64,000 nucleotides of DNA, from contig JBKECA010000285.1 in assembly GCA_047973435.1 (NCBI GenBank), positions 575 through 64,574 of the forward strand. The letters are read 5' to 3'. Both the position numbers and the translations under genes were made by a program. The notes below the pieces were generated by a model. The model did no database searches and was not told the DNA's origin. It saw only the letters and a list, made by a program, of their open reading frames with translations. This document shows, in pieces, positions 25,626 through 61,200 of the stretch (the first letter of the stretch is position 1; the number at the start of each line of letters is the position of its first letter). The DNA comes from Planctomycetaceae bacterium (lineage in GTDB: Bacteria; Planctomycetota; Planctomycetia; Planctomycetales; Planctomycetaceae).

Positions 25626-25626
25626 G

Positions 25627-27223: not shown

Positions 27224-27718
27224 TTACTTGGAGTTGTCCACAGTCCAGTTGTTAATGTCATCGCCGCTGCCGCTTTGATTCTCTCCATCCGGCCCCGCCG
27301 ACCAGATCTTCGGTTTGCCCAGGCTGGCAGTGTCGCCCGAGCCGTTCCATTCGTAGTACAACTTGCGACCCCAGCCATCCTTGAACGGCTCATCGGTATA
27401 AGGTTCAACCTGCCGGCCGTCCTTTTGCTCTGGCTGCATCAGCATGTTCCAGACATCTTCGTTTCCGCTGGCTTTGGGGTAGTTGCCGAAATTGTCTTTG
27501 GCGTACAGGTTGAGCGCGCCCTCGGCATTCTTGATGGCGACCTTGCTGGCATCGATGTATGCCTGCCGCTGCTGGCCGAGCAATCGAGGAACAACCATCG
27601 CGGCGATGACGCCGATAATCGCCAGCACGATCAGCACCTCTAGCAGTGTGAAGCCCCGACGACGCCGGGATAGCGAACGCGAGGGAACAACGGAGTTACG
27701 GGAACGCACCTGCATCAT
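27224..27718 (-). CDS. gspG: type II secretion major pseudopilin GspG
   Basis: 164-aa product from ATG 27718 (MMQVRSRNS...RRRRGFTLLEVLIVLAIIGVIAAMVVPRLLGQQ). The C-terminal part (YPKASG...WGRKLYY...GPDG) is typical of GspG. The ORF-track extension to 28510 is rejected. Confidence 0.85.
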   Translation of the reverse strand: MMQVRSRNSVVPSRSLSRRRRGFTLLEVLIVLAIIGVIAAMVVPRLLGQQRQAYIDASKVAIKNAEGALNLYAKDNFGNYPKASGNEDVWNMLMQPEQKDGRQVEPYTDEPFKDGWGRKLYYEWNGSGDTASLGKPKIWSAGPDGENQSGSGDDINNWTVDNSK

Positions 27719-28399
27719 CAAAAGGCTCCTGATTCCTCGACAAACTCGTATCCGGCCACCCACAATCGAGATGGCATAAGAACTCTCGCCGAACTCAAAT
27801 GTTTGTGCCCGCCGTTTCGACTGAGGCCGTTTCGACTGAGATGGCTCAGGCGTCCACCGGCCGCGAGGGAGAACGTATCCTCTTTGGCCGCCTGCGGCAT
27901 GACACCGGCGTGTCTCCACAACCTCACTGGCAGCCGGGAGATACAACCTCATTAGGAAGGTATACGCAGGCTGCAATGCCCTGTCTACAGCGAATTGCAC
28001 GGGGCCGCGTTCTCGCGAGAAGAATGGGGTCGGAGATTCCCGTCGCTCTTGTCGCCGTTCCCGCTGCCAGCGAACGGGTTCAAATCCGAGGTCGAGATCC
28101 TGGCGCCCCGTCGGCCTGGAGTCCTGCCGGCCCGACCCGTCAGCTCCGGGAATCCATCGCGGACGGGCTGGCTCCGTTGCCTGCAAGTCTGCTACAGTTC
28201 GGCACTTGTGAAAGCTTGCACCCGTAGGCGTTCGGTGAGGCCGAAAGTGGTTCGGTGTCGCGCCGACGGGGCGACTGTATTCTCTTTTGATTGTGTCGCC
28301 CGAGAGAGTCTTGCGTCGGTTGGCGGACGAATGAGTCGTCCGTTTCAAACCGCGGCGAACCTCACAGGGCGGGGACAACTTCGGGAACCCCTGACTGCT

Positions 28400-37414: not shown

Positions 37415-38242
37415 TCATGGCCAGATCGCGGCATCTTCGCCGTCGAGCCGCAGCGTTAGGCACTTGGCGCTTCCGCCCGCCTTGATGAACTCGTCCAGCG
37501 GCGTCGGGACGACGTGGAACCCCTGCTGCTTTAGTTCCGCCGTCAGCTGCGGACAACCGTTGTTGAGGATCACCGTAGTGCCAATCACGACGGCATTGCA
37601 CGCGAAGCGCGCGGCTTCGCTGTCTGGCACTGCGATCAGATTGGGAATCGCCCCCCGGATAGCCTTCTGACCGTATTCATCGAACGCCGCCGGATACCAC
37701 ATCGCCAGCCCCGGCCGCAGCGGACAGAAGCAGGTGTCGAGGTGATAGTAGCGGTCGTTAACCAGTTGCACCGGCAGAACCCGACAGCCGATCGCTTCCG
37801 CCAGCCACTGCATCGCCCGGGCATCACTGCGAAAGACATATCCGCCGACGAGTGTCTCGCCGCAGAACAGGGCATCCCCGGCTCCTTCGAAATCGAGATC
37901 GTCCGGGAGTTCCCGACAGGCCAGTCCATGCGACTCAAACCATTCCCGGTCAACCGGCGTCTCCGGCTGTCGGGCGGAGTAACGAAATCGGGACAGGTAC
38001 ACCGTCTCCCGATGCACGAGCCCGGCATTTGCCGTGAAGACCAGATCCGGCAGACCCGGTTTGGCCGGCAACAGTTCAATCTGACCACCGCAACTGGAAA
38101 TGGCGGCGCACAGCCCGTTCCATTGCTCGCGTGCGGCCGCCACGTCGGCACCACGCTGCCGATTCATCCACGGATTGATCTCGTACTCGATCCCGTAATG
38201 GTCTGGCGGACACATCAGAATGGTCGGCAGCTGGAACGGCAT
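37415..38242 (-). CDS. amidinotransferase / dimethylarginine dimethylaminohydrolase-like family protein
   Basis: 275-aa ORF starting ILMCPPDHYGIEYEINPWM and ending with the catalytic-Cys context GGSAKCLTLRL, typical of the guanidino-group modifying enzyme fold. Confidence 0.8.
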   Translation of the reverse strand: MPFQLPTILMCPPDHYGIEYEINPWMNRQRGADVAAAREQWNGLCAAISSCGGQIELLPAKPGLPDLVFTANAGLVHRETVYLSRFRYSARQPETPVDREWFESHGLACRELPDDLDFEGAGDALFCGETLVGGYVFRSDARAMQWLAEAIGCRVLPVQLVNDRYYHLDTCFCPLRPGLAMWYPAAFDEYGQKAIRGAIPNLIAVPDSEAARFACNAVVIGTTVILNNGCPQLTAELKQQGFHVVPTPLDEFIKAGGSAKCLTLRLDGEDAAIWP

Positions 38243-38256
38243 ATCTCGTCCGTGCT

Positions 38257-38344
38257 GTTATTCCGCACGCGGTCAAAGACGATACGTTCTGTCGCGTGGG
38301 ACTTGATCGTCCGAATCATCTCACTCGCTGACGCGGGCAATCGA
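38257..38344 (-). repeat. 87-bp inverted-repeat element, copy A (diverged)
   Basis: GTTATTCCGCACGCGGTC...CCGAATCATCTCACTCGCTGACGCGGGCAATCGA. It fills the 104-bp spacer between the gpx stop and the amidinotransferase start. Confidence 0.8.
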
Positions 38345-38346
38345 CG

Positions 38347-38949
38347 TCATGGGGTCGACAACGGCTTGACCAGTTCCGCCTGAACGGCCTTTGCCAGCTC
38401 CGCGTCCGTCGGCTCGGTTCCTGTGCCGAAACGGGCGACGACCTGTCCGTCCCGGCTGATGAGAAACTTCTCAAAGTTCCAGCCGATGTTGCCAGTCCCT
38501 TTGGGCCTGGTCGTCTGACTCGTCAGGTACTTGTAGAACGGTGCCGCCTGCGGGCCGTTGACGTCAATCTTGGCGAACATCGGAAAGGTGACGCTGTATT
38601 CTCGTGTGCAGAACGCCGTGATCTCCTCGGCCGATCCTGGTTCCTGAGCGCCAAACTGGTTGCACGGAAAGCCGAGCACCACGAGGCCGTCCCCCTTGTG
38701 CTCCTGATACAGACGCTGCAGGTCGGCGTATTGCGGAGTCGCTCCGCACTCACTGGCCACATTCACTACCAGCAGGACCTTCCCTTGATAATCCGCGAGA
38801 TTCACGGACTTTCCATCCAGCGACTGGACTTCGTAATTGAGTGCTGCGGGCACGGTCTTGTCCTTCGGTTCAGCAGCCAACACAGAGGCGGTCAGGGTCA
38901 ACACGGTCAGACAGGCGTAGCGAAGCATGCAAATTCTCCCGAGGGTCAT
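38347..38949 (-). CDS. glutathione peroxidase
   Basis: 200-aa ORF with a signal peptide and GPx motifs NVASECGATPQY and LGFPCNQFGAQEPG. Confidence 0.9.
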   Translation of the reverse strand: MTLGRICMLRYACLTVLTLTASVLAAEPKDKTVPAALNYEVQSLDGKSVNLADYQGKVLLVVNVASECGATPQYADLQRLYQEHKGDGLVVLGFPCNQFGAQEPGSAEEITAFCTREYSVTFPMFAKIDVNGPQAAPFYKYLTSQTTRPKGTGNIGWNFEKFLISRDGQVVARFGTGTEPTDAELAKAVQAELVKPLSTP

Positions 38950-38974
38950 GGCACCGTTTATCCGATTCCCATTC

Positions 38975-39060
38975 TATACCGCACGCGGTCAATGTTGATA
39001 CGTTTTGCCTCGCGGGGCTTTAACGTCCGAATCATCTCACTCATTGCCGCGGGCAGTATA
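38975..39060 (-). repeat. 87-bp inverted-repeat element, copy B
   Basis: TATACCGCACGCGGTCAATGTTGATACGTTTTGCCTCGCGGGGCTTTAACGTCCGAATCATCTCACTCATTGCCGCGGGCAGTATA, ending 25 nt upstream of the gpx ATG. Confidence 0.9.
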
Positions 39061-39144
39061 TACCGCACGCGGTCAATGTTGATGCGTTTTGCCTCGCGGG
39101 GTCTTAACGTCCGAATCATCTCACTCGCTACCGCGGGCAGTATA
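39059..39144 (-). repeat. 87-bp inverted-repeat element, copy C (head-to-tail with B, sharing TA)
   Basis: Same unit as B with about 5 substitutions. The junction reads CAGTATATACCGC, so the two copies overlap by the dinucleotide TA. Confidence 0.9.
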
Positions 39145-39169
39145 GACGCTGGCGGGCAATGGCCAGGAG

Positions 39170-40297
39170 TCATTCGTCTCCGAGCAGCATTCTCAGATAT
39201 CCCTGATACCGCAGACTGGCGATCTCACCTCGTTCTACGGCCTGTTTTACAGCACAACTGTGTTCGTGCGAATGGGTGCAGTCCGGAAATCGGCAGTGAG
39301 GAATGTGGGGCAGGAAATCTCGGAAGTAACCCTCAATCTCAAATGGGGCGACGTCCCACAGTTGCATCTGGCGAATTCCCGGTGTGTCCACGATCCAGCC
39401 CCCACTTGCCAGTGGTAGCAGCGCTGCGACTCGGGTGGTGTGTCGCCCCTTGCCGGAATCCTCACTGACGCCCCCTGTCGCCAGTTGCTGTGAGGAGTCG
39501 AGCGCATTGATCAGCGAGGACTTGCCAACCCCGCTTTGGCCGGCCACCACACTCACGCGGTCGTGCAGAATGGATCGCAGCGGCTCAATTCCTTCCCCCG
39601 TCACGATGCTACTGAGCACGACGTCGTAACCGATGCGACGATAGATATCCGCCACGTGCTCCAGGTCCGGGCGGTCGACCAGATCGACCTTACTGATGCA
39701 GACGACAGGCCGAACGCCCCCTTTTTCGGCGCTGACGATGAAACGGTCAACAAGGGCTGGCTTCAGTTGTGGCTCGGCCGCCGAAGTCACGATGACCGCC
39801 TGATCGATATTCGCCGCGATCACGTGCTCGTGCCGATCGCTGCCGCGCGAGATCGTGGTGCGGCGGGTCTCGACACGCACAATCACGCCGTGCCAATCAT
39901 CCTGTGGCTCCACCAGCACCTGGTCCCCCACGACGACGGCATTCCGCACGTCGCGAGACATCGTGCGGACAAGACGCCGCACAGTGCACTCCAGCACGCG
40001 ACCATCGCCCCCTTGCACGGAGCAGTGATTCGCCCCGATGGCTCGCAGCACCCGTCCGGCCATGCAACGTTCAGCGTCGACGGCCAGTTGAGGCAGCGCA
40101 CTACCGACATCGCCATCGGCGAGCACTGTGCGACGACGCGTGATGGCCCCCTTGCCAGTCAGTCGTTCGCTCTGCTGTCGGTCGGCTGCGGCGTCGAGGT
40201 CTTCGAGTGCCTTGTGAGTCAGGTTCTGCTCGCGAGCACGGCCCGCTCGATTCTTCCGAAATTCCACCCGGACCTTCTTGGGGCGTTTACCAGTCAC
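39170..40297 (-). CDS. rsgA: ribosome small subunit-dependent GTPase A
   Basis: Circularly permuted GTPase motifs (NIDQAVIV..., VVAGQSGVGKSSLINAL, DTPG) and the C-terminal zinc knuckle CRFPDCTHSHEHSC. The GTG start at 40297 overlaps the upstream stop. Confidence 0.9.
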   Translation of the reverse strand: MTGKRPKKVRVEFRKNRAGRAREQNLTHKALEDLDAAADRQQSERLTGKGAITRRRTVLADGDVGSALPQLAVDAERCMAGRVLRAIGANHCSVQGGDGRVLECTVRRLVRTMSRDVRNAVVVGDQVLVEPQDDWHGVIVRVETRRTTISRGSDRHEHVIAANIDQAVIVTSAAEPQLKPALVDRFIVSAEKGGVRPVVCISKVDLVDRPDLEHVADIYRRIGYDVVLSSIVTGEGIEPLRSILHDRVSVVAGQSGVGKSSLINALDSSQQLATGGVSEDSGKGRHTTRVAALLPLASGGWIVDTPGIRQMQLWDVAPFEIEGYFRDFLPHIPHCRFPDCTHSHEHSCAVKQAVERGEIASLRYQGYLRMLLGDE

Positions 40298-40818
40298 GGT
40301 TGTTCGTCATCACTCAACCATCGGGCGGCGTCGTTTTCGCTGTCCGTAAACTTGGAATCGTCGCGGGTCACCGGACGACTCGATCGCGCCCGGGGGGGGC
40401 GGGCCTGCTGACGCATCAGGCCCGCCTTTTCCAGCAGACCGATGGCCAGCGGATCCTCCTCCTCCTGTGGCGGCGGCGCATCGGCCGCGGGCTGATATCC
40501 AATCTTGAAGACATGCCGCGCCACTGACAGTTCATCCCCCGGTTGCAGCCAGTGAGAGTCACAGCGTTCGCCGTTGACTTTGATTCCGTTGCGGCTGTTC
40601 AGGTCGCGTACGAACCAGAAACCGTTCGTCAGCTCCAGCTGACAATGCTGGGACGACACATTCGGAAAGTCGAGGACGACGTCGCAATTCGATCGACGAC
40701 CGATAAGCACGCGGGGCTTCAGCAGCGGAATGGGATCGCCGCCTCCGACTGGATTCAGTTCACCGTAGTCCTGCACTGTGGCCATAGTCTCCGCCCGCTG
40801 CCTGAACCCGGCCGCCAT
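40294..40818 (-). CDS. FHA domain-containing protein
   Basis: 174-aa ORF with an FHA core VLIGRRSNCDVVLDFPNVSSQHCQLELTNGFWFVRDLNSRNGIKVNG. Confidence 0.85.
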   Translation of the reverse strand: MAAGFRQRAETMATVQDYGELNPVGGGDPIPLLKPRVLIGRRSNCDVVLDFPNVSSQHCQLELTNGFWFVRDLNSRNGIKVNGERCDSHWLQPGDELSVARHVFKIGYQPAADAPPPQEEEDPLAIGLLEKAGLMRQQARPPRARSSRPVTRDDSKFTDSENDAARWLSDDEQP

Positions 40819-41000
40819 CTGCGACCCTTGGCTATGACACTAACCCCACCAATACGTCAAGTCAATCGGCAAGCGGCCAACCGTTTGCAAGATGATGTTC
40901 GGATTCGACGCGCGTATTGCCGGACAGTGAGAGGCTACCAAGCCTCCATAATGGCGACCAGAGCGGGCAGCGCCGACGATGACAATCGGCCGTGACGGCA

Positions 41001-42587
41001 TCACCGGGGTGGAATCGATGGCTTCTTCAAGACCGCGGGGCGTCCCACCTGCTCGGGATTGTCGATCCCGAACATCGCGCCGTTGGTCAGGTTGGCCTTG
41101 GACGAACCCCCTTTCCACAAGTCCCATTTCGGATCGGCATACTGACCGAAAAAAGCGTGCAGTCGGGACTGTAGTTTGTCACGCAGACGATCCAACTCCG
41201 AGTTGTCGATCAAGTTGTTGTGTTCGTCCGGGTCAGCGGTCAGGTCGTAGAGTTCGTTCGGCTCCTGATGGACGCGTTCAATGTATTTCCATTGCGGCGT
41301 GCGAATGGCCCGGACGTTTTCGAATTCGTAGTAATGGACCTCGTCCCAATCCGTCGGCTGATCGTGCAGCAGTGGACCGAAGTCGCGACCGGGTGAGCGG
41401 GGAGACTGCGGTATCCGATCAGCGAGCCCCAGTTCGGTCAACAAAGTGGGATACAGATCGTAGTTACTGACCATCTGAAGAACGCGGCGGCCTGCCGGCA
41501 CGGTCCCCGGTTGTCGCAGGATAAGCGGGATCGTCATGCCCCAATCAAAGGCCGTCAGGGGGCGGGTATGGTCTCCCATGCCCCAATAGCCAGCGTGGCC
41601 GCCCGAGCATCCCTGGTCGGATGTGAAGACGACCAGAGTGTTCTCGTCCAGTCCATGCTCCTTCAATGCTTCCATTACCCGTCCGACGCCGTCGTCGATG
41701 CCACTGATCTCCGCAGCGTATTTGCGAATGACCTGGAGATCGCCGATCCAGTCGCCGTAGTTGTGATTCCACGGTTGTGGCTTGGTCCGCGGAAAAGAGG
41801 GCAGCGTCCTGTCCGCGTAGAACCCCGCGTGTCGATTGTGGATCGGTTCACGCATTGCCGGAGCAAGGCCATAGGGGCCGTTATAGGGCAAGAACAAAAA
41901 AAACGGCTGGTCCTTGTGATCGGCGATGAACTGAACCGCGTGATCAGTCCACAGGTCGGTCAGATACCGCGGTTCCTTGCGGGTCTCGCCGTTCTCAATC
42001 ACCTCCTGATCGTAAAAGCCCGCGCTACCGCCGTGGGGCTTGGTGATCCAGTGGGAAAAGCCGTCCTGGGGCGTGGCGTTGGCCCCTAGATGCCACTTGC
42101 CGCACATGCCCGCCACGTAACCTGACTCAACCAGAATTTGAGGAAGCGTGTCAAACTCTTCCAGAGTGTAATACGCCTTGGGGCCAGTTTGAGCGCCACC
42201 TCCTGCGAGAAACCGATGGACCCCATGCTGACAGGGCATCAGTCCGGTAAGCAGCGTGGCCCGTGTCGGCGAACAGACGGCGTTATTCGCCAGGGCATGC
42301 TCGAACAGCGTTCCTTCCTTCGCCAGCTGATCGAGATGCGGGGTCCGAATGTCCGGATTACCATAGCAGCCCAATGTCCAGGGGCTGTGGTTATCGGTCA
42401 AAATCAGAACCAGGTTACTCCGCGCGCGGTCAGTATTGATTCGTTCTGCCTTGCCGGATTTTAACGTCCGATCCGTCTCACTCGCTGCCGCGGGCAGACT
42501 CGTCTTCTTCTGGGCACACAAATGACTTGTGCCGCACAGAACAAGCAGAAGCCACTGCAATTGAGAGCTTCGTCGAACTCGCATCAT
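41001..42587 (-). CDS. sulfatase carrying an in-frame copy of the 87-bp element after its signal peptide
   Basis: Formylglycine motif CSPTRATLLTGL and metal-site start NLVLILTDNHS. I chose ATG 42587 (MMRVRRSSQLQWLLLVLCG signal peptide). Confidence 0.9.
   Translation of the reverse strand: MMRVRRSSQLQWLLLVLCGTSHLCAQKKTSLPAAASETDRTLKSGKAERINTDRARSNLVLILTDNHSPWTLGCYGNPDIRTPHLDQLAKEGTLFEHALANNAVCSPTRATLLTGLMPCQHGVHRFLAGGGAQTGPKAYYTLEEFDTLPQILVESGYVAGMCGKWHLGANATPQDGFSHWITKPHGGSAGFYDQEVIENGETRKEPRYLTDLWTDHAVQFIADHKDQPFFLFLPYNGPYGLAPAMREPIHNRHAGFYADRTLPSFPRTKPQPWNHNYGDWIGDLQVIRKYAAEISGIDDGVGRVMEALKEHGLDENTLVVFTSDQGCSGGHAGYWGMGDHTRPLTAFDWGMTIPLILRQPGTVPAGRRVLQMVSNYDLYPTLLTELGLADRIPQSPRSPGRDFGPLLHDQPTDWDEVHYYEFENVRAIRTPQWKYIERVHQEPNELYDLTADPDEHNNLIDNSELDRLRDKLQSRLHAFFGQYADPKWDLWKGGSSKANLTNGAMFGIDNPEQVGRPAVLKKPSIPPR
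42414..42499 (-). repeat. 87-bp inverted-repeat element, copy D (inside the sulfatase ORF)
   Basis: GTTACTCCGCGCGCGGTCAGTATTGATTCGTTCTGCCTTGCCGGATTTTAACGTCCGATCCGTCTCACTCGCTGCCGCGGGCAGACT. It is translated as ..AAASETDRTLKSGKAERINTDRARS.. Confidence 0.8.
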
Positions 42588-42795
42588 GGCATTGCACTCC
42601 AAATCGAGTCGCTCGACTCGTCAGCAACGTGGGTCACAGAAGGGGCGGCCATTCGCCAGTGTGATTGAAGTCAATCACACTGTCTGAGACCATAAGATAG
42701 CAGGGCTCATCAAAAATCCAGTGACGGGGCCTGTTCGCACGAGCCGTCAGCAAGACCGGACGGCTGATCTTGCCAAACGTTTCTTGCCAGACCTG

Positions 42796-42882
42796 ATACT
42801 GCCCGCGGCAGCGAGTGAGACAATTCCGACGTTTAAGCCCCGCGAGGCAAAACGTATCAACATAGACCGCGTGCGGTATAAC
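42796..42882 (+). repeat. 87-bp inverted-repeat element, copy E
   Basis: ATACTGCCCGCGGCAGCGAGTGAGACAATTCCGACGTTTAAGCCCCGCGAGGCAAAACGTATCAACATAGACCGCGTGCGGTATAAC, ending 28 nt upstream of ATG 42911. Confidence 0.9.
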
Positions 42883-42910
42883 AGAGTTCGACGTCTCCGG
42901 GGAGCGCCTC

Positions 42911-43885
42911 ATGTCACGGCAGCATGACAAGTCGACAATCTCCGCTGGTTTGCTCTTCCTGATGATGGTCGCCGTTCTGCCGGCCGAGTCGCCAACAGCA
43001 GACGAGTCGATCCCGAGTGCCCTGCGACGTTTGGGTGCGGAGGACTTTGACATCCGCACGGCTGCCATGCGGACTCTACTGGACGCTGGCGTTGCCGCTG
43101 TTCAGCCTCTCGCTGAAGCGGCCAGCCATGAGCCGGAACGAGCAACGGAGTTCATGGCGCTGCTGGACAAACTGGCACGTAGCCCGGATCAACTCGTGGT
43201 CCAGGCAGCGGACGAAGCCATCCGAGATCTGGCTTACAGCGAGCACGTCACGGTAGCGCAAGCAGCACGCAGTCTGAGAAGACCAGGCGTGCCATACACC
43301 GAGGAGGACCGGCAGCGCCTGGGACTCATTGAAATGCTCCCCGTCATCAGCCGGATCGTCGACAATCGTCGTGAGACCCGCTTCATCGATGATGAACGTC
43401 CGGTCGAGATCATCGAGTTCGCCTCTGGCCGCATCTATGTGAATGTTTCTCAAAGCACCAATGACCAGACAGGCAACGTTGTCGTAACTGCCGACAATGC
43501 GGAGCAATTGCGCGAGAAGAACGCCGGGGCGTTTGAGCTCTATCAACGGCGGGAAAAACGACTTCCTCGGAATTGGCACACTGATCTGTGGGATTTTGTG
43601 CAGAACAAGACACGCTCGCCCCGCAGCACCAGCATCATGCAAAGCTCCAGTCATCGTCGCATTCGCTGCTTTGAAGAGATGCATCAAGTCGATATCGTCG
43701 AGGGGCTCGGTTCTCCCGTCCAGGTTCGGATCATTACGCTCATTAATGGCAACGATGTGGTTCAGGAAATAGAAGGACCTGACTTCGAGTCCATCCGACG
43801 GCAGGCGCCGCAAGTCGCCGAAATCTGCGATCGACTGCGCAAAGAGGCCGATGTCCGCACTCCCTGGTCGCCCATGTTTCCTTAA
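42911..43885 (+). CDS. hypothetical secreted protein
   Basis: 324-aa ORF with a signal/anchor segment (ISAGLLFLMMVAVLPA) and a HEAT-like helical N-terminal part. I recognise no family. Confidence 0.55.
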   Translation: MSRQHDKSTISAGLLFLMMVAVLPAESPTADESIPSALRRLGAEDFDIRTAAMRTLLDAGVAAVQPLAEAASHEPERATEFMALLDKLARSPDQLVVQAADEAIRDLAYSEHVTVAQAARSLRRPGVPYTEEDRQRLGLIEMLPVISRIVDNRRETRFIDDERPVEIIEFASGRIYVNVSQSTNDQTGNVVVTADNAEQLREKNAGAFELYQRREKRLPRNWHTDLWDFVQNKTRSPRSTSIMQSSSHRRIRCFEEMHQVDIVEGLGSPVQVRIITLINGNDVVQEIEGPDFESIRRQAPQVAEICDRLRKEADVRTPWSPMFP

Positions 43886-43915
43886 CTACTCTCCGAGGGA
43901 GAGTGGTGCGTCTGT

Positions 43916-44033
43916 CATTGTGCTCGCGACACGACCTGAGAAGATACGGACGTTGGCCCCCCGCAAGGCAATCCGGATCGCCATTGACCCGGATTGCCAT
44001 TGACCCAGATCGCCATTGACCGCGGGCGGTCTC
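43916..44033 (+). repeat. 87-bp element, copy H (degenerate, with internal 3 x 16-bp tandem amplification)
   Basis: CATTGTGCTCGCGACACGACCTGAGAAGATACGGACGTTGGCCCCCCGCAAGGCAATCC aligns to the left and central parts of the consensus. Three units follow (GGATCGCCATTGACCC / GGATTGCCATTGACCC / AGATCGCCATTGACCG), then CGGGCGGT. Confidence 0.6.
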
Positions 44034-44136
44034 GAGGGCTCGCACCTGGATCGGTCACACGCAGGGCCCTGTCGGCGTCGGCTTGTGGCAGCGATCGACT
44101 CCGTCGTTGCTGAGGGCACTCGATCCCCCCGTTCCT

Positions 44137-47318: not shown

Positions 47319-49943
47319 TCACGTAGTCCGCTCCGACTGAAACGGCCAGTGCAGGCTGAAGTCGATCCGCCGCAGCGCCACGTCCAGCACCAGTAGCAGG
47401 AAGGCCGCGGACAACAGCCACGGCCAAAGCTGCGTCGGACGGGTCGTTGTCCGACCGTCCGCTGCGAACATCGTCTTCGGATCAGGTCGGCAGCGGCCTC
47501 CCGACAGTTCTGCCACGCGCTGGAGCAGTTCGTCGTTGGTCGGGCGAATTCGCAGTTCGTCGCTGTAGCCCACCGTCAAACCCCGCGACTGCCGGTAAAC
47601 CGATTGTCCCTGCTGTTTGACCTCCAATTCGAGGTGGTACGCGCCGGGATGATCGGCGGTAAAGTCGATGCCGTACTGACCGGGAGCAGCCTGGACCAGT
47701 GGAGAGCGTGTCCGTTTGAGACGCGGGTCGATCAGTGTCAGTTCGACGTCGGCACCGTTCATGAACCGGCCCAGGTCGTCGACCGCATCGAGATCGAGAT
47801 GCACGTTCCGACCATTGCGTGTGGTTTTCACCGCAATTCCGCGCGCATCACTTTTTCGCATCGTCTGCCGGATCACCTGCGTCCAGAATTTGCCGAAGCC
47901 GGGCCACGTCATCCATTCGGCCGCCCAGCGACTCTTGGCGTCGGAGGTAAATGCGGACGTCATGCCCAGGCCATATCGCCACCAGGCCAGCAAGGGGTCG
48001 CCGCTCTCCGTGGCCAGAATCACTTCGCACGTTGGCTTGGGGCGTGTAATGACATACCCCAGCAGGAATGGAGCTGAGTCGAGGTCGATCTCCTTGAGGG
48101 CGTGCGTCGCCCGCACCACTTGCGGAATGAACGGCTGCTCGTCGATGGCCGACTTACTGGCGGTGACCGTTTCTTTGGCGAAAATCTGCGGGACCTGCGC
48201 GGGATCGGTTGTGAGGTAGTAGCGTCCCTTCCCGACTCGCGCGATGTTTTCCAGCAGGTCGGAGTCGCAGCCTTCTCCAACGGCCACGGTTGAGACGGTC
48301 ATCTTGCCCGATGACATTGTCTGGGCCATCCCTTCGAAGTCCCCCGGCGAGGAAACGCCGTCGGTCAGCATGATTACATGCTTGAGTTTGGCATTCGCAC
48401 TGGAAAGCAGTTCGTAGGCCATCTCCATGGCGGGGTACATATTGGTCCCCCCACCGGCGTCAATGCGGCCAATATCGTCGTCGATAGCGGCCTTGTTCGT
48501 CGCCCGCTGCATCTCGCTGATGAGGAAGGTCTCCCCATCGAACGCCACCACAGCCACCTGATCACGCTGGCCAAGCAACTCCACCGCGCTGCGGGCGGCG
48601 GACTTGGCCATCTCAATTTTGTCGCCATCCATCGAGCCGGACTTGTCGATCACCAGCACCATCGCCAGAGACGGCTTCTCTTTCTCCTTCTCGAAGTCGG
48701 ATCGGACTGGCAGAATCTCCTCCAGCGTACTCTTGTAGTATCCCCCCAGGCCAAATGACTGTTCGCCTCCCAGCATAATCATCCCGCCCCCCAGCTCCTG
48801 CACGTACGTCCGGGCCATCTCCATCTGCTTTTGCGTCAGCGACGTGGCGGGGACGTTCGATAGAACCAGACACTCGTAATTCTGAAGGTCGGCGAGAGAC
48901 TCGGGCATCCCCTGTGGCGGACGGATATCCGCTTGAATGCCTTCGTCCTCCAGGGCATACGCCAGCTCACGAATCAGATTCGGGTCACTCTCGACGATGA
49001 GCACGCGCGGCTTGCCGGCGGCAAAGACCAGCCCCGAGTCGCTGTTGTTGTCAAGCAGAGAATCCTGCTGCAGCCCAGAGACTCGGACTGCAAACGCCGC
49101 CAGCCGCTCTCGCTCGATCGACTGCTGAAAGCGAAATCGATTCTCTCCCGCCTTGAGTGGCCGCCGCTCGCCCACCACTTTGTGATCGCCGCGATAGACC
49201 TCGATCAACCCTTCATCGTCGTGGTTGGAATGAATCAACACTTCGACGAAAAACGGCTCACCCTCGCGTACTTCCGCCGGAACATTGACTTCGGAAATCT
49301 GCACTTCCGGATCTGTGCGCGTCGGCAGAGGAACGGTGTCGACCGGGATGCCTGATCGCAATGCGGCAGCGGCAGCGTCGCCCAAGGTCTCGTTCCCGTC
49401 GCTCAGCAAGACGATGCGCGGCACGTACCCCGGGGGAATCGACCCTGCTGCCGCCTCCAACGCGGCGGCGATGTCCGTTCCCGCGTCGGCGGAATCAACG
49501 GTCGGTAGCGCTGCGATGGGAGTCGCGGGCTCGGCAGGGGCGCCGTCGTCCATGGAAGACTGATCGACGGGCTTGTCCGACTCGGGACGTGAGTCCAGCA
49601 CCGCGCCCGGTTCGCGTGCGAACGGCAGAAACGCTACCCGATTGGGCCCGGTCTGCCGAAGCGCCGCGTCCAGGGTCTCCCGCACGTGCGCACGGCCCTC
49701 GTCTCCCACACTTAGGCTGTCGTCAATGGCGAACAGGACAAACTGCTCGTCGGTGTCGTGCAGCCACGTCAGTCCCGCCAGAGACAGGACGATCAGGGTC
49801 ACCATGAGTGCCCGCGTTGCCAGCGAAACCAGTCGCTGTCGATGTGGGAAGTCACTGAGACTGCGAACAAAGAAGTACACCAGCCAAGGCAGCGCAAGCG
49901 CCAGCAGCGTCAGCATCCATGGTCTGGTGAATTCAAACGGCAT
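47319..49943 (-). CDS. vWA domain-containing protein with N-terminal double-TM region and GATase1-like middle domain (BatB/BatA-associated large protein)
   Basis: 874-aa ORF with an N-terminal TM pair, the vWA MIDAS LAMVLVIDKSGSMDGDKIEMAKSAA and a C-terminal TM. It is the last gene of the MoxR-DUF58-BatA string. Confidence 0.8.
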   Translation of the reverse strand: MPFEFTRPWMLTLLALALPWLVYFFVRSLSDFPHRQRLVSLATRALMVTLIVLSLAGLTWLHDTDEQFVLFAIDDSLSVGDEGRAHVRETLDAALRQTGPNRVAFLPFAREPGAVLDSRPESDKPVDQSSMDDGAPAEPATPIAALPTVDSADAGTDIAAALEAAAGSIPPGYVPRIVLLSDGNETLGDAAAAALRSGIPVDTVPLPTRTDPEVQISEVNVPAEVREGEPFFVEVLIHSNHDDEGLIEVYRGDHKVVGERRPLKAGENRFRFQQSIERERLAAFAVRVSGLQQDSLLDNNSDSGLVFAAGKPRVLIVESDPNLIRELAYALEDEGIQADIRPPQGMPESLADLQNYECLVLSNVPATSLTQKQMEMARTYVQELGGGMIMLGGEQSFGLGGYYKSTLEEILPVRSDFEKEKEKPSLAMVLVIDKSGSMDGDKIEMAKSAARSAVELLGQRDQVAVVAFDGETFLISEMQRATNKAAIDDDIGRIDAGGGTNMYPAMEMAYELLSSANAKLKHVIMLTDGVSSPGDFEGMAQTMSSGKMTVSTVAVGEGCDSDLLENIARVGKGRYYLTTDPAQVPQIFAKETVTASKSAIDEQPFIPQVVRATHALKEIDLDSAPFLLGYVITRPKPTCEVILATESGDPLLAWWRYGLGMTSAFTSDAKSRWAAEWMTWPGFGKFWTQVIRQTMRKSDARGIAVKTTRNGRNVHLDLDAVDDLGRFMNGADVELTLIDPRLKRTRSPLVQAAPGQYGIDFTADHPGAYHLELEVKQQGQSVYRQSRGLTVGYSDELRIRPTNDELLQRVAELSGGRCRPDPKTMFAADGRTTTRPTQLWPWLLSAAFLLLVLDVALRRIDFSLHWPFQSERTT

Positions 49944-49961
49944 TGGGCTTCCGTCAAAAAG

Positions 49962-52070
49962 TTAGTCGACGAACCGACGCTGATACAGGAACCACTCCAG
50001 CACGGCCACCAGTCCGGCAGCCGCGGCGAGGTAGAACCAGAATGGCCGGGTAAACCACCCCGCGACGAGTGCCGCGTCGGGCCGGCTGGCATCCAGGTGC
50101 TCTGGTGGTCGTAAATCGCTCTCGTCCGCATTCGCCAGGTTGACCGCCAACGACGCCAGGGGAGAACTCTCGGTCTCCGGTTCCTCTGATGGGGCTGCGG
50201 TCCTGCCTGCGACGCCTGCCAGAACTTCGTAAATGCCGACTCGCTCCAACGGGCCCACTGTCAGCGGAAGCGACTCGCGCAGCACGGTTCCGGCATCGTC
50301 ATCGGCTGCCGGAGGCGACAGGTTCTGTAGCCGTCCGGCGGGATCGCGCAGCTGATAAGTCGGTTCACGTCCCACGGTCGTGCTGGGAACGGTGAGCGTC
50401 GCAATGTCCCCAGTCGAAACGGCGCGATTCAACTCTCCACTGGTTCCGGCGAACCAGCCAAGCGCATTGGAAACCAGGATCGGAAACGCAGTCCGAAACG
50501 CGAGGTCCCCCTCCTCCAGATTGACCGTCAGCACGAGACATCGGCCTGCTTCTCGCGGCAGCTCAGCATAGATTGGCTCGCCCGAAACGCTGCCCGCAAG
50601 CACATGCGGTTTCACACTGAACTTGAGCTGGCGGGCCGCAGGCATCAGCACATTGTCCAACCGAACATGCGTCATTAAAGGCGAGTTCTGGTCCTGCTCG
50701 GTGATAATGGGATTCGCCAGCGGCTCTCCCAGAGTCCACAGGTCTGAACTCTCCGTGGGATCGATGACGAGAACTTGCCCTGCCGGCAACTGCGGCGGAA
50801 CAAGCCGATGCAGCACCACCAGCGTTTCCGCCGGCCATTGTTCCGGCAGTTCCTCAACGACTTCAACCGCCACAAGGGGATTGGCCTCGAACACCTTTTC
50901 GAGAAACCAGTTGCCGGGAGAAACAATCAGCACCGTCTGAACCTTCCGCGCCGGCAGAATGGCCGCGGCAATGTCATCCGTTGCTAGCCAGTTCGCGGAC
51001 GATTTGCCGGCGGGGGCGTCGGTGAGTTTCGCGTCCGCGTGCTCCGATTGATTTCCGCCCTCTGCCGCTGGGCCGTCATTACCGGCCGACTGCAGGCGGA
51101 CGTCCACCAGGGTGGCTGTCAATCGTCCCCCCTCCAGCGAGGTCTTCTCGATAGACCGTGTCCAGACTTCGTCTGCAGTCAGTTTCAGCGGCAGAATGTC
51201 AACCGGCAAGCCATCCAGTTCCAACTCGAGCCGACACTCCACGGGCTTGTTCCCTGCGTTTTTGACGACCGTAAGGACCTCGTAGCCAAGCGGATCCAAC
51301 AGGCTGCGCCGCACCTGAAACTGCGTGATTCCGACATTGGCTGCCGGCGTTGCAAAGTAGCGATGCTCAATCGTGATTGCCGATTCCGCAGCGGTCTCGG
51401 AGTCTTCGCCGACACCCGCAGCTGGCTTGTCCAATCCCGTTGAGGCGTCCGGTGACGAACCGGCAATCTCCTCGACCGACTCTCTTTGGCAGCCATCCGT
51501 GAGAACCACAATTTCCCCCTGGGGATGATCTCCAATCAGCCGGCGTCCCAGCTCAATCGCCGGAGTGAGTGCCGTCGGTCCATCGCTCGCCTGTAATTCA
51601 TCTAGCACTCGCCGCAGTGTCGGCAAATGTCCATTCATGCCAACCGCGACTTGTGGTGGGTCCCCCGCCAGGACAATCGCCAATTCGTCCCGGGCGCGTA
51701 GACCCTCCACCTGATCTCGCGCGGCTGCAATGGCCGCGTCAAATCGCGTTGGTTCGATATCCGCCGCCTGCATGCTCGCGGAGCGGTCGATAACCAGAAC
51801 GACGCGTCGCGCCTGCTTGGCCTGCCAGGCAAAGAACGGGTCTGCCACCGCCGAGACCAGCAGGGCCAAAAGCCCCAACTGCAGCAGCAGCGACAGCAGA
51901 TGCCGCAGGTACTGCCAAATCGACCGCGGCGGCTTCTCTTCGTACAGCTGCTTCCAGAAGAGATTTGTCGACACCGGCACCCGCCGTAACCGCACCTTGA
52001 GGATGTATAGCCCTACAATTGGCACAGCAAGTGCCAACCAGAACAGAGCAGATGGTGCGGCGAAGGACAT
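49962..52070 (-). CDS. BatA domain / vWA domain-containing membrane protein
   Basis: 702-aa ORF whose N-terminus MSFAAPSALFWLALAVPIVGLYILKVRLRRVPVSTNLFW matches the BatA N-terminal double-TM pattern, followed by the vWA start VVLVIDRSASMQA. Confidence 0.8.
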   Translation of the reverse strand: MSFAAPSALFWLALAVPIVGLYILKVRLRRVPVSTNLFWKQLYEEKPPRSIWQYLRHLLSLLLQLGLLALLVSAVADPFFAWQAKQARRVVLVIDRSASMQAADIEPTRFDAAIAAARDQVEGLRARDELAIVLAGDPPQVAVGMNGHLPTLRRVLDELQASDGPTALTPAIELGRRLIGDHPQGEIVVLTDGCQRESVEEIAGSSPDASTGLDKPAAGVGEDSETAAESAITIEHRYFATPAANVGITQFQVRRSLLDPLGYEVLTVVKNAGNKPVECRLELELDGLPVDILPLKLTADEVWTRSIEKTSLEGGRLTATLVDVRLQSAGNDGPAAEGGNQSEHADAKLTDAPAGKSSANWLATDDIAAAILPARKVQTVLIVSPGNWFLEKVFEANPLVAVEVVEELPEQWPAETLVVLHRLVPPQLPAGQVLVIDPTESSDLWTLGEPLANPIITEQDQNSPLMTHVRLDNVLMPAARQLKFSVKPHVLAGSVSGEPIYAELPREAGRCLVLTVNLEEGDLAFRTAFPILVSNALGWFAGTSGELNRAVSTGDIATLTVPSTTVGREPTYQLRDPAGRLQNLSPPAADDDAGTVLRESLPLTVGPLERVGIYEVLAGVAGRTAAPSEEPETESSPLASLAVNLANADESDLRPPEHLDASRPDAALVAGWFTRPFWFYLAAAAGLVAVLEWFLYQRRFVD

Positions 52071-52128
52071 GAGATCGGAATTGAGTTTTCAGTAAACAGT
52101 TTTCAACGCTCAGTTTTCAACGCTCAAC

Positions 52129-53034
52129 TCACGCTGCTCGTCCGGATTCACGCATCATCCGGAGGATCAGCTCGTCGAACTTGATCGTCGCCGGACTCTG
52201 CGTGCAGCCCAGACCATAGTTGCGGCAGTAGTCCCGAACCGACTGCTGATGATTCTGGAACAGTTGCCGATACGCGCGGGCATTGCGCTCCGTCACCGTC
52301 ACCTTGCGCAGCGAACCTGTCTCGATGTCTTCCAATTCCACATCCCCCAGGAGCGCCGGGTTCGCCTCTTTGGGATCGTGCAGCTGGACGACATGTCCGT
52401 CGAACCGCCGGTAACGCAGTTGATCCAGCCCGGACTGAAAGCCCCGTTCGTCGTACAAGTCGCTGACCAAAACGGTCATGCCACTACGACGGGACCGATG
52501 CAGCAGCCCTTGAACCGAGCGGGACAGCATGGTGTCGGTTCCGGTAATCCGCTGGGCTTCCAGGAACCGCATCAGCGGCACGATGCGGGCTTTGCCCCGC
52601 GTCAAAGGGAACTCGTCCACCACTTCGTCATTGAAGGACAACACCGTCACGCGGTCCAGATCAGCGAGTGCGATATACGCCAGCGCGGCCACCAGCTGTC
52701 GCGCCAAATCGAACTTCGCCGGTTGACCAAACCCCATGCTGCGGGAACAGTCCAGCATAAAATAGACATGCAGGTCCTGCTCTTCCTGAAATCGCTTGAG
52801 CAGCAGATCTCCATGCCGGGCGTAAACGTTCCAATCCAGATACCGAAAGTCATCTCCCGGGGTATATTCGCGATGGTCTGAAAACTCGATTCCCGATCCC
52901 AGCTGCATCGTTCGACGTTGTGCCAGCAACGACCCCCGGAACACCCGCTTCGAAATGATTGACAGGTACTCGAGTCGAGTCAGGAAATCGGGAGGGAAGA
53001 GCATGCGGGCTGTCGCGATAAGAAGTCGGACCAA
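52129..53034 (-). CDS. DUF58 domain-containing protein
   Basis: Signature HREYTPGDDFRYLDWNVYARHGDLLLKRFQEE and a vWA-like start VYFMLDCSRSMGFG. An alternative ATG lies at 53004. Confidence 0.85.
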   Translation of the reverse strand: MVRLLIATARMLFPPDFLTRLEYLSIISKRVFRGSLLAQRRTMQLGSGIEFSDHREYTPGDDFRYLDWNVYARHGDLLLKRFQEEQDLHVYFMLDCSRSMGFGQPAKFDLARQLVAALAYIALADLDRVTVLSFNDEVVDEFPLTRGKARIVPLMRFLEAQRITGTDTMLSRSVQGLLHRSRRSGMTVLVSDLYDERGFQSGLDQLRYRRFDGHVVQLHDPKEANPALLGDVELEDIETGSLRKVTVTERNARAYRQLFQNHQQSVRDYCRNYGLGCTQSPATIKFDELILRMMRESGRAA

Positions 53035-53111
53035 TTCGAACAGGAATTGAGGACGGAATCGACTCGAACTCTAGACTTGCTGTCAGCGCGGTCTGGCCGC
53101 CGATCACGACG

Positions 53112-54119
53112 CTATGCTGCCAGTGCGTCCTCAGTCAGTCCGGAAATGATCTTCTCAATCACATCGTCGGTGCTGACTCCTTCAGCCTGTCCTTCGAAAT
53201 TCAGAATCATCCGATGCCGCAGGCAGGGGGCCGACATCGCTCGCAGATCGTCTCGGGCGACGTGATAGCGCTCGTCCAGAATGGCCTTGATCTTGGCCCC
53301 CAGGATGAGCGCCTGCAGGCCGCGTGGACTGCTGCCATAGCGAACGAACTGCTTGGTTGGCTGCGGAGCGAGCTCATGTTCGGGATGCGTGGCCAGCACC
53401 AGGGCAATGCCATAGCGCCGAACCTCGTCCGCGATGGGAATCTGCCGCGCCAACGCCGACATCTCCAGAATTCGTTCCCCTGTCAGAACCGCGTCCGCTT
53501 TCTGCGTCGACGTCTCCGTGGTTCGGTCGAGAATCGTTTCCAGATCGCGGGCCGAAGGATATTTGACCAGCAGCTTGCAAAAAAAACGGTCCAGCTGCGC
53601 TTCGGGAAGAGGATAGGTTCCTTCCATCTCCAGCGGATTTTGCGTTGCCATGACGAAGAACGGCTCGCTCAGCCGATGGGATGTTCCCGCCACGGTTATC
53701 GAATGCTCCTGCATCGCCTCCAGCAGCGCCGACTGGGTCTTAGGGGTGGCCCGATTGATTTCGTCGGCGAGCAGCACGTTCGCGAATAGCGGGCCCTCTT
53801 GGAACTGAAACGCCTTGCCACCGTCTGGCGTATCTACCACCACATTCGTTCCGATCAGGTCCGCCGGCATCAAATCAGGTGTGAATTGAATCCGTCGAAA
53901 ACGCAAATGCAGGGCATCGGCCAGTGTGCGAACCGTCAGTGTCTTGCCCAGCCCCGGAACTCCCTCCAGCAAGACATGTCCACCCGCAATCAGGGAAATC
54001 AGCGTGTCGTCAAGAATCTCCTGTTGGCCTACGATAACCTTCGCAATCTCCGCTCGCAGCCGGTTGAAGTCGGCTCGAAACTGATCTAGCTGTTGCTTCA
54101 GCTGGTCGCTCACACTCAT
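53112..54119 (-). CDS. MoxR-family AAA+ ATPase
   Basis: 335-aa ORF with Walker A LLEGVPGLGKTLTVR and Walker B LLADEINRATPKTQSALLEAM. Confidence 0.92.
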   Translation of the reverse strand: MSVSDQLKQQLDQFRADFNRLRAEIAKVIVGQQEILDDTLISLIAGGHVLLEGVPGLGKTLTVRTLADALHLRFRRIQFTPDLMPADLIGTNVVVDTPDGGKAFQFQEGPLFANVLLADEINRATPKTQSALLEAMQEHSITVAGTSHRLSEPFFVMATQNPLEMEGTYPLPEAQLDRFFCKLLVKYPSARDLETILDRTTETSTQKADAVLTGERILEMSALARQIPIADEVRRYGIALVLATHPEHELAPQPTKQFVRYGSSPRGLQALILGAKIKAILDERYHVARDDLRAMSAPCLRHRMILNFEGQAEGVSTDDVIEKIISGLTEDALAA

Positions 54120-54617: not shown

Positions 54618-56204
54618 TTACGGTTTCAGCAGCTCGGTAAAGTGGAACCCGTCCACCCGCAGCAGCGTTGCACTGGAGACGATCATTTGCAGGACGAGAA
54701 ACGCCAGCCACAACCGTCGACTGGCCGGCGGCGCAGTCGGTTGGCCTGTTGAATTCGCTGCGGCAAACGCATTGATTGCCGCAGCGACGAGCCAGGGGAG
54801 AATGAGGATCCACAGCCGCGATGCCTCACCCATGTTCTTGCCCGACAGCCACAGCAGCATCCAGACAACGGTAAACGGCACCACCGGCGACGACAGGTAG
54901 TCACGCCAGTTCCGCAGCTGCCGCCAGGCTCCCCATTTGACCAGCGCAACAATGGGCGTACCGGCCGCTAGCGTGATCTCAAGGGGATTTATCAGCAGCC
55001 ACTTCCAGTAGGTCCGTGCATTGTGCTCGTAGAACAGCGCATGGTTGCTCAGGTTCCATTGCCAGACATTCAACAAATTGAGTTCACGGTACCCGAACGC
55101 CGTCATTACCCCCCCCAGTGCGATCAGAAAGCAGCCCAGCAGACAGGCGGCAATGGTCAGCTCATGAGCCACCCGTTCTGTTCGCTGTCGATCGTCGCGC
55201 CGCTCCGCCAGCACATCGCACAGCCACTGCATGCCGATCAGCGCCAGCACGCTCAGAAACGCCAGCGACAACACCATTCCGCCGACAACCACCAGCCCTC
55301 CCAGCACGGCGCACACAACCGTCATCAGGGTGAGTCGCTCGCGGCTGCGGTACCACGCGGCACGAAACATCCATCCGGCCGTCAGTCCAAGGACCGGATA
55401 AAGAACGTCCGACTTCGGCAGAAAGATGGCGACAGAGGGAACGAGCGGCCACAGCACGACCGTCCTCCAGACGGCAGCACGCTCGCTGGACAGTCGCAGA
55501 TAGCGATACATCGGAATCACTACGAGTGCTGCGGCCAGTTGTGTTGCCAGAGTGGCCAGCCACAAACAGGCGGAATCACGTTGGGTGAATTCGGTGCCTC
55601 CCGACTGAACCTGCTGTTCCATCATCTCCAACGTCTGCCGCATGTCTGCCGGCATCGTCGTCTCGGCCAGACGCACCAATCCGGGCCAGCGTTCGCAGGA
55701 GTTGATCAGACCGCAGTACAGCAGTGTCAGCCCTGGGGGGTGCGTTCCGATGTGCAAGTAGTCTCGTTCGGCCAGAAGCTGTTCGTAACCGACCAGAAAC
55801 TCCGCCACGGAGGTCACATCGTACCGGGCCTGCCAGTAGTAGCCCTCGGTTCGACGGTAGTAGAGGACATAAGGGGATTTGCTCAGTCCAACCCCTTCGA
55901 TCGACGCCGACTGCACAGCCCATAGCCAGCTGAACCCGGCTGCCACGAGCGCCAAAAGCCACAACATGGCCTCACCACGCGAAGCGGTGGCCATCCGCCG
56001 GTCGCCCAGCCACGCGAACGTTCCGTAGGCCGCAGCCGCTGCGGTGCAGATCAATCCGCTCCACAGCAGACCCGGCGTCGAATACGACAGCCGCGCCCAG
56101 GTCCATTCACCGGGAACGCCCAGCGGCAGCCAGTCGGTCCACAGCAAGAGGAGACTGGCAACGCTCGTCAACAGCGTCAGGACAATCAGGACCCGGCGGC
56201 TCAC
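54618..56204 (-). CDS. hypothetical polytopic membrane protein
   Basis: 528-aa ORF with at least 10 hydrophobic segments. It resembles glycosyltransferase-C-type or mannosyltransferase-like membrane proteins only in architecture. No motif is secured. Confidence 0.55.
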   Translation of the reverse strand: MSRRVLIVLTLLTSVASLLLLWTDWLPLGVPGEWTWARLSYSTPGLLWSGLICTAAAAAYGTFAWLGDRRMATASRGEAMLWLLALVAAGFSWLWAVQSASIEGVGLSKSPYVLYYRRTEGYYWQARYDVTSVAEFLVGYEQLLAERDYLHIGTHPPGLTLLYCGLINSCERWPGLVRLAETTMPADMRQTLEMMEQQVQSGGTEFTQRDSACLWLATLATQLAAALVVIPMYRYLRLSSERAAVWRTVVLWPLVPSVAIFLPKSDVLYPVLGLTAGWMFRAAWYRSRERLTLMTVVCAVLGGLVVVGGMVLSLAFLSVLALIGMQWLCDVLAERRDDRQRTERVAHELTIAACLLGCFLIALGGVMTAFGYRELNLLNVWQWNLSNHALFYEHNARTYWKWLLINPLEITLAAGTPIVALVKWGAWRQLRNWRDYLSSPVVPFTVVWMLLWLSGKNMGEASRLWILILPWLVAAAINAFAAANSTGQPTAPPASRRLWLAFLVLQMIVSSATLLRVDGFHFTELLKP

Positions 56205-58163: not shown

Positions 58164-58364
58164 GATGACGATTGCACCTCAACCCAACTGCCCCCCCACT
58201 TCCGCCACAAGGCATCGTAATTCGCGGCTCTCGGAAGCGAAACGGCAGCCGGTCGGCCGACGTGCGCGAGATCACTCGCGCGGCGACACCTCGGCAGCCA
58301 TGAGCGATTTGTTCGTTTCCAACGCTGCCAGCGTCGGAAACGAAGTCCCGGGCAGATCATCTGT

Positions 58365-58382
58365 GACTGCGTGCGGTATAAT
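58365..58382 (+). repeat. solo right end of the 87-bp element (fragment G) carrying a perfect TATAAT
   Basis: GACTGCGTGCGGTATAAT compared with consensus GACCGCGTGCGGTATAAC. It lies 113 nt upstream of ATG 58496 on the same strand. Confidence 0.55.
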
Positions 58383-59389: not shown

Positions 59390-59615
59390 TCCACCGACGA
59401 TCTGACTGAGCGTCAGCCCTTGAAGAAAGTGTAACAGGCCAGAAAAGACCGGCGTGCGGTTGCCCAGCGTGCAACGCGGCCGCAGGTCCGGCGACTTCTG
59501 TCCGCCCCGCCGAGGCCCCGGCTGCTTGATCTTGAGAGCTGGCTTCTCATAGGGCGGCACCGCCCCCGAAGGGGCGGTCGGCCCAGCGGCAGGTTTGGCT
59601 TAACCGAGCCGAGAC

Positions 59616-61112: not shown

Positions 61113-61200
61113 TATACTGCCCGCGGCAACGAGTGAGATGATTCGGACGTTAAAGCCCCGCGAGGCAAAACGTATCAACTTTGACCGCGTGCGGTATAAC
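61113..61200 (+). repeat. 87-bp inverted-repeat element, copy F
   Basis: TATACTGCCCGCGGCAACGAGTGAGATGATTCGGACGTTAAAGCCCCGCGAGGCAAAACGTATCAACTTTGACCGCGTGCGGTATAAC. It is almost identical to the reverse complement of copy B, 22 kb away. Confidence 0.9.

Follow-up and report, generated by a model that had tools for sequence, protein, structure and literature searches.

A probable lineage-specific family of TA-flanked miniature inverted-repeat elements in a Planctomycetaceae genome

Introduction

MITEs, or miniature inverted-repeat transposable elements, typically measure about 50–500 bp. Among the closest described counterparts of the element studied here are the Correia or NEMIS elements of Neisseria, which are small and non-coding, carry TA-flanked inverted repeats, occur in many copies (reviewed in PMC10969869) and are found for the most part a short way upstream of genes or in operon spacers, where they are co-transcribed as hairpins. 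We analysed a 64,000-nucleotide stretch (the window) of contig JBKECA010000285.1 from a Planctomycetaceae bacterium and found in it a repeated unit of 86 bp that resembles Correia elements in these respects, with co-transcription very probable, and that probably represents a new, lineage-specific MITE family with TA as its target. It is a known kind of selfish DNA and not a new kind of system. No transposase of its own is known for either family. The two differ in that Correia elements are ~100–155 bp long with 26-bp inverted repeats, compared with 82–86 bp and ~14 bp here, and promoters, an IHF site and processing by RNase III have been documented for them, whereas the promoter signal of the present family does not exceed that of shuffled sequences. 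They come from different phyla and show no evident sequence relationship; any likeness presumably lies in the first residues only, TATA(G/C)TG.

Rickettsia palindromic elements (RPEs) are, like the present family, palindromic and lineage-restricted, and they too insert in frame into genes without destroying the protein (here as 28 residues in a sulfatase linker), but they are ~100–150 bp long, and TA-flanked inverted repeats are not what defines them. RPEs lie unusually often inside open reading frames (ORFs), with 44 insertions in genes of R. conorii (PMC10969869), whereas one of nine window copies lies in an ORF here and open frames occur at chance level (2/6). Bacterial MITEs derived from IS630/Tc1-mariner, such as Nezha of cyanobacteria and RUP of Streptococcus pneumoniae, have in common with our family a TA target (a probable one here) that is apparently duplicated, short terminal repeats directly inside the TA, a length of <150 bp and bursts of amplification in one lineage; for Nezha and RUP a parent insertion sequence with matching ends is known, whereas the target dinucleotide is the entire basis for a superfamily assignment here. 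ERIC sequences are likewise imperfect palindromes in transcribed intergenic regions, and orientation-dependent effects on mRNA have been documented for them (PMC10969869). They are ~127 bp long and conserved across many enterobacterial genera, in contrast to the present family, which was found in a single metagenome-assembled genome (MAG) in the databases searched. MITEs are hardly documented in Planctomycetota: a full-text literature search returned no paper describing one in this phylum, which is also absent from a review of MITEs in prokaryotes published in 2024 (PMC10969869). The family described here adds an example.

Results

Copies, boundaries and ages of the element

We built an nhmmer profile from six clear copies (A–F) and ran it over the entire 64-kb window, which yielded these six as full 86-bp copies together with a diverged copy (I), a degenerate copy (H) and a 3′ fragment (G). 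Copies A (38259..38344, matched over 38257–38344; E = 5.6e-26), B (38975..39060; E = 1.5e-28), C (39059..39144; E = 7e-28) and D (42416..42501, matched over 42414–42501; E = 3.9e-24) lie on the minus strand. Copies E (42795..42880, matched over 42795–42882; E = 1.5e-27) and F (61113..61198, matched over 61113–61200; E = 1.6e-29) lie on the plus strand, as do H (43916..44033; E = 1.8e-7, plus a second fragment match; ~61% identical), the old copy I (27812..27903; E = 2.7e-8; ~60% identical) and fragment G (58343..58382; E = 1.3e-3). G is the 3′ terminal part only, consisting of GACTGCGTGCGGTATA and ~20 nt upstream of it, with one mismatch within the 16-nt end. Six copies are clustered within 5.8 kb. 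The 16-nt ends occur six and nine times in the window, against 0.3 and 0.5 occurrences expected from shuffles. An initial annotation of this DNA had listed seven full copies; nhmmer recovered all of its placements, but six of the copies are full and H is degenerate. That list had also missed copy I, and the possible remnants it placed at 7211–7220 and 59447–59460 proved to be mere 10–14-nt similarities without profile support.

The consensus of the unit is TATACTGCCCGCGGCAGCGAGTGAGATGATTCGGACGTTAAAGCCCCGCGAGGCAAAACGTATCAACATTGACCGCGTGCGGTATA. The element proper measures 82 bp, 5′-TACTGCCCGCGG...CCGCGTGCGGTA-3′, or 86 bp when written as a TATAC...GTATA unit. Its terminal inverted repeats span ~14 bp with the flanking TA included (TATACTGCCCGCGG versus TATACCGCACGCGG) and match at 12 of 14 positions, as had been read from the sequence at the outset, and inverted repetition is confined to the outer 14–17 nt. 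The element has its 3′ boundary immediately behind GGTATA. Elsewhere in the genome, thirteen copies were visible as ORFs beginning at the internal ATG of the element and reading out of it; they share MIRTLKPREAKRINIDRVRY and diverge at the following codon, and the AC with which the consensus had earlier been ended is flank, being variable among copies elsewhere in the genome. Among the best conserved blocks are the terminal repeat cores (TGCCCGCG, GACCGCG and GCGG) along with the internal GAGTGAGA; conservation of the terminal cores is consistent with a role in protein binding, or just with young copies. As a single strand in the orientation of E and F, the unit (−32 kcal/mol, z = −3.4) folds into a 16-pair terminal helix with two small hairpins in the interior, and the central hairpin proposed earlier was reproduced in this computation. 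The complementary strand folds less well (z = −1.4) because a U-G pair turns into an A-C mismatch.

The copies differ in age. Over 86 bp, B and F show 97.7% identity (two differences), which bears out the near-identity (two to three differences) from which recent spread had been proposed, and that proposal survived the tests run. B, C, E and F are mutually 88–98% identical, with 93–98% among young copies; copy A is 77–83% identical to these four and copy D 72–79% identical to the other copies. Copy F is closest to the consensus. Translated, the copies fall into peptide subfamilies, with MIRTLKPREAKRINID in most and IPTFKPREAERINIG in E and in two proteins encoded elsewhere in the genome, P0002 and P0003; frame 1 of copy E reads 'IPTFKPREA...', in common with both proteins. 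Older peptide forms occur in A, D, I and a further protein, P0137. We infer that A, D, H and I are old, that B, C and F form a young, near-identical set and that E belongs to a second subfamily, which would mean that the family was amplified in a single Planctomycetaceae lineage, in two or three waves at the least. The family may still be active today.

Two of the old copies carry internal repeats. At 43970–44030, in the 3′ part of copy H, ATCGCCATTGACCC is triplicated, giving about three repeats of a 16–17-nt unit, GATCGCCATTGACCCR, and in the 5′ part of copy I (27810–27839) the 15-nt sequence CCGTTTCGACTGAGG is duplicated in tandem. These duplications suggest slippage in decaying copies.

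Evidence for insertion, probably at TA

The unit is small (86 bp) and non-coding, has inverted termini, occurs in dispersed similar copies and is present or absent at sites compared with relatives, features by which, along with a flanking target-site duplication, a MITE is recognised. Copies B and C stand head to tail and have one TA in common (39059–39060), with the junction GCGG-TATATA-CTGCC and a period of 84 bp. The period and the common TA fit an 82-bp element plus a duplicated TA; the tandem is thus consistent with an 82-bp element (TAC...GTA) that was inserted into the TA flanking another copy. TA is present on both sides of B, C and F.

Copy D lies within the coding sequence of a sulfatase (41001..42587, minus strand; 528 amino acids; Pfam Sulfatase, 9e-48). 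The protein is 100% identical to the database entry P0016, and the public annotation of the MAG includes the insert. The copy is in frame; its product, SLPAAASETDRTLKSGKAERINTDRARS, separates the signal peptide (MMRVRRSSQLQWLLLVLCGTSHLCAQ) from the conserved NLVLILTDNHS. All 21 of the closest homologues (61–70% identical in the alignment, ~485–523 amino acids long) lack this segment, and in them the signal peptide is followed by about five residues and then (P/T)N(L/V)V; copy D is therefore a true insertion. When 84 bp are removed from the gene, the sequence AAG AAG AC-TA-AC CTG encodes KKTNLV, which agrees with the PTNLVLI of several homologues, whereas removal of 82 bp, as a 4-bp duplication of TATA would need, breaks the frame. 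Copy D has been absorbed in frame as a 28-residue linker of a secreted sulfatase, a natural experiment in which a MITE is tolerated at such a place.

Copies D and E, on the minus and plus strands, respectively, stand head to head with 293 bp between them and form an inverted pair (42416–42880; 78% complementary) that encloses the region coding for the sulfatase signal peptide and a divergent promoter region. The enclosed segment could in principle be moved as a composite unit.

Comparison with the nearest relative found (JGI 3300037310, contig L008) gave a further site at which the element is lacking. The order of the genes for glutathione peroxidase (Gpx) and a DDAH-like protein, which flank copy A in the window, is kept there, and the proteins are 71% (Gpx) and 80% (DDAH) identical to those of the window, but the 169-nt spacer (369–537) contains no element. 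This spacer has tandem repeats of its own, CAAGGTT three times and GGTGTCT twice. On another contig of the same MAG, 65,547 bp long, a fragment of an IS66-family transposase (P0136, MFV0445371.1) is interrupted by a reverse and then a forward copy. The fragment matches Pfam DDE_Tnp_IS66 at model positions 34–167 of 284 and has no stop codon at its end, and it indicates that the genome carries IS66 elements too.

We consider it likely that the family consists of an 82-bp non-coding MITE that inserts at TA, is mobilised in trans by a DDE transposase and has been amplified within this lineage. In the proposed mechanism, the gene for this transposase would lie in another part of the genome, and the enzyme would recognise the ~14-bp terminal repeats and insert the element at a TA dinucleotide, which would be duplicated, so that each insertion would add 84 bp. 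The partner may be an IS630/Tc1-mariner-type enzyme, a guess made from the TA target alone. A transposase had been reported as lacking from the window, and indeed no transposase domain was found among the ~50 major ORFs scanned there.

Distribution across the genome and in databases

As the element is open in one frame, we searched for further copies in protein space. A profile of seven window peptides, made from artificial dimers, gave 15 matches among 5.8 billion protein clusters, and phmmer with the 71-amino-acid ORF that reads through B and C gave four among 1.84 billion representatives, two of them new. All 17 matched proteins are singletons of a single 'Planctomycetaceae bacterium' MAG at NCBI (locus tag ACK5Q5; accessions MFV044xxxx–MFV0445xxx), and they are distributed over at least 14 of its contigs. 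The earlier view that the copies are dispersed and not the product of local duplication therefore holds. Counting the nine copies or fragments of the window and at least 17 seen through translated ORFs on 13 other contigs, at least 26 copies were seen. Only two of six window loci produce such a read-out ORF, so the true number is, by rough reckoning, probably several times higher.

At least 16 annotated 'hypothetical proteins' of 41–99 amino acids (P0001–P0015 and P0137) are read-outs of the element, most of them beginning at its internal ATG (MIRTLKPREAKRINIDRVRY...), and they are almost certainly annotation artefacts. A defined consensus thus aids annotation, since at least 17 'hypothetical proteins' and one extended sulfatase in a public MAG derive from the element, as artefacts or as products. 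The element also accounts for assembly break points of this organism. The Logan assemblies of SRR30067259 and SRR30067261 hold the same loci, with copy A in contigs L006 and L007; contig L006 ends 26 nt inside copy B and contig L009 ends 30 nt inside copy F, as expected of a multi-copy repeat.

Elsewhere the element was not found. Rfam was without a match both when the whole window was compared at gathering score and when 38200–44100 was compared at E ≤ 1, in keeping with the initial annotation, which had recognised no known family. A pattern with 23 specified bases had a single match in JGI metagenome contigs, a chance one at 46% G+C, and neither IMG/VR viral contigs nor PLSDB plasmids gave a match. 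Four relatives, Maioricimonas sp. JC845 included, had no element in the 56 kb of their DNA covered around orthologous genes. A gapped-pattern scan of GTDB genomes listed at least one match, a chance one in Rathayibacter, and is uninformative on other genomes. The family is confined to one MAG in the databases searched. This restriction in part reflects thin sampling of the lineage, as the nearest sequenced relatives are only 70–80% identical at the protein level.

Gene neighbourhood and orientation

Copy A fills 86 of the 104 nt between the stop codon of the Gpx gene (38347) and the start of the DDAH-like gene (38242); it is in sense orientation to both neighbours, and its 3′ end lies 16 nt before the ATG of the DDAH-like gene. 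The B/C tandem occupies the 220-nt spacer from rsgA to gpx, with C as the upstream and B as the downstream member, and B lies 25 or 46 nt from the start codon, depending on the start chosen. A, B and C thus fall within a co-directional string of genes, FHA-rsgA-gpx-DDAH, and are very probably transcribed along with it. The same holds, very probably, for copies in short spacers of co-directional genes in general. Copies transcribed in the sense orientation would add a stable terminal hairpin (−32 kcal/mol) to the message, which may affect the RNA.

The other copies lie in spacers of several kinds. Copy F is located between the stop codon of a DUF1501 gene (61482, minus strand) and the start of rlmN (60967, minus strand), copy I between two divergent genes, one for a pseudopilin (minus) and rpsA (plus), and fragment G between a likewise divergent pair, a murD-like gene (minus) and a CN-hydrolase gene (plus). 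Copy E is found 30 nt upstream of the ORF at 42911–43885 (plus strand), and H lies downstream of the same ORF in a convergent spacer. This ORF, bracketed by E and H, encodes 324 amino acids with a signal-peptide-like N terminus. Neither it nor the ORF at 54618–56204 (minus strand; 528 amino acids) matched Pfam at E ≤ 0.01 or 0.001. The genome has 61% G+C, and the positions of the copies could be explained by TA targets that are concentrated in intergenic DNA and near gene starts.

Alternative explanations

Several observations weigh against a freely moving, TA-duplicating MITE. Copies A, D and E have a mutated outer TA, and none of the DNA examined contained a true empty site, the Logan assemblies showing filled sites only; duplication of TA on insertion would therefore be deduced from the tandem junction and the reconstructed coding sequence. 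No autonomous partner with matching ends was found, with the rest of the genome seen only through its proteins. AC stands just 3′ of the element at four of five independent full-copy loci (A, D, E and F, not B/C) and likewise in the diverged copy I, which could reflect a target preference or an extension shared by a subfamily. Eight of nine copies are in sense orientation to an adjoining gene, F being the sole antisense copy. This counts against the MITE interpretation because a freely inserting MITE would not predict a bias. With B/C taken as one locus, the ratio is 7/8 (p ~0.035 one-sided, 0.07 two-sided), a bias that is suggestive and not significant and that could arise from selection against antisense copies in transcripts, from strand-specific insertion or by chance.

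The sense bias, the positions 16–46 nt before start codons (A, B and E), the operon spacers, the stronger fold of the sense strand and an 84-bp (3n) open frame together raise the idea that copies are kept as RNA hairpin modules for mRNA stability or processing, or as RPE-like donors of linker peptides, which we regard as unlikely. A stricter version, in which the element is a structured cis-acting RNA (a hairpin in 5′ untranslated or intercistronic regions) kept for transcript stability, processing or translation, with mobility as just its origin, draws on much the same evidence, with the better sense fold owing to G-U pairs and with pairing kept in 86% of pair cells across seven copies; we think it rather improbable. 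RNAalifold returned a covariation term of +0.9 kcal/mol, and both sides of a pair had changed in 5 of 203 pair cells across the seven copies, mostly in poorly aligned old copies. There is no convincing covariation, and on present evidence this is not a selected RNA fold. The earlier hint that the fold itself is maintained is accordingly not upheld, and the stem GACGAT/ATCGTC then cited for copy A is a register shift rather than a compensatory change and is unused in the minimum-energy fold. The empty Rfam search, even at E ≤ 1, the unrelated genes downstream (DDAH-like, Gpx, rpsA, sulfatase and a hypothetical protein), the element-free spacer in the nearest relative, and the presence of one copy within a coding sequence and two within a transposase gene also speak against a cis-acting RNA, and TA-rich targets near gene starts could yield the positional bias without function. 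Outward promoter-like sequences, TCAACA-16 nt-TAGAAT or TATACT, were matched only at the junctions of B and C, twice against 1.9 times expected from shuffles, which is no evidence for a promoter, and no T run follows the hairpin as in a terminator.

Elements moved by tyrosine (HUH) transposases do not duplicate their target and enter it 3′ of a defined tetranucleotide. REP sequences and REPINs are 20–40-bp palindromic units whose GTAG or CGTC tag is unpaired; they often form inverted doublets and are associated with a RAYT gene. That the unit is such a hairpin, moved as single-stranded DNA in the manner of REPIN/RAYT or of palindromes derived from IS200/IS605, seems to us very unlikely. With 86 nt, its long imperfect hairpin falls in the range of REP doublets by size, single-strand movers typically have a strand-asymmetric orientation, an invariant GACG, which reads CGTC on the opposite strand, adjoins the central stem, and Planctomycetes have been reported to have CGTC- and GTAG-tagged REPs (PMC3733652). 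The symmetric TATA ends and the tandem junction with its common TA nevertheless fit a duplicated TA target, and the 5′ flanks have no conserved motif. The interior is not a doublet of two inverted REP units, since the inverted repeats are the outer 14–17 nt only, GTAG occurs in one copy only, and no RAYT-like or TnpA gene is present among the window ORFs scanned. Integron attC sites, for their part, have RYYYAAC and GTTRRRY cores and belong to promoterless cassettes in one orientation with intI nearby. The notion that the unit is not mobile at all, being a segment duplicated locally, a coding module that is repeated or attC-type sites, is scarcely credible and has already been refuted by the results, although six copies lie within 5.8 kb, one frame is open in all copies and some copies end in GTATAAC, like the RYYYAAC core. 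Local duplication does not agree with copies on at least 14 contigs. A coding module is ruled out by the substitutions in the open frame, which number 14, 13 and 9 at codon positions 1, 2 and 3 with no third-position excess; moreover, two open frames out of six are the chance expectation at 60% G+C, and neither the element nor its read-out ORFs match a Pfam domain. As for attC, the AAC is variable flank, the other end has no complementary GTTRRRY, no integrase is encoded in the window, the neighbours are housekeeping genes whose synteny is conserved, and an ORF contains one of the copies.

The core of the initial annotation, a TA-flanked element with inverted repeats that is dispersed, non-autonomous and of the MITE type, thus survived all tests that were run. 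The family leaves the understanding of MITEs unchanged, and its value is descriptive unless the orientation bias is functional or an active partner transposase exists.

Other features of the window

A cluster resembling those for type II secretion (T2SS) or type IV pili extends over 21198–27700 on the minus strand and comprises genes like those for PilM, T2SS-K and T2SS-J together with four pseudopilin genes, which carry N-terminal methylation motifs. A 53-nt repeat present in four copies is the coding sequence of these pseudopilin methylation motifs and not a mobile repeat. At the boundary of the T2SS-K-like and T2SS-J-like genes (24604–24657), a 15-nt unit, CGGATCGGTTGCACR, is repeated three times in tandem. 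Two sets of genes for a MoxR AAA+ ATPase, a DUF58 protein and VWA (BatA-like) proteins, at 10487–14240 and 47319–54119 (minus strand), are paralogous operons of the aerotolerance type.

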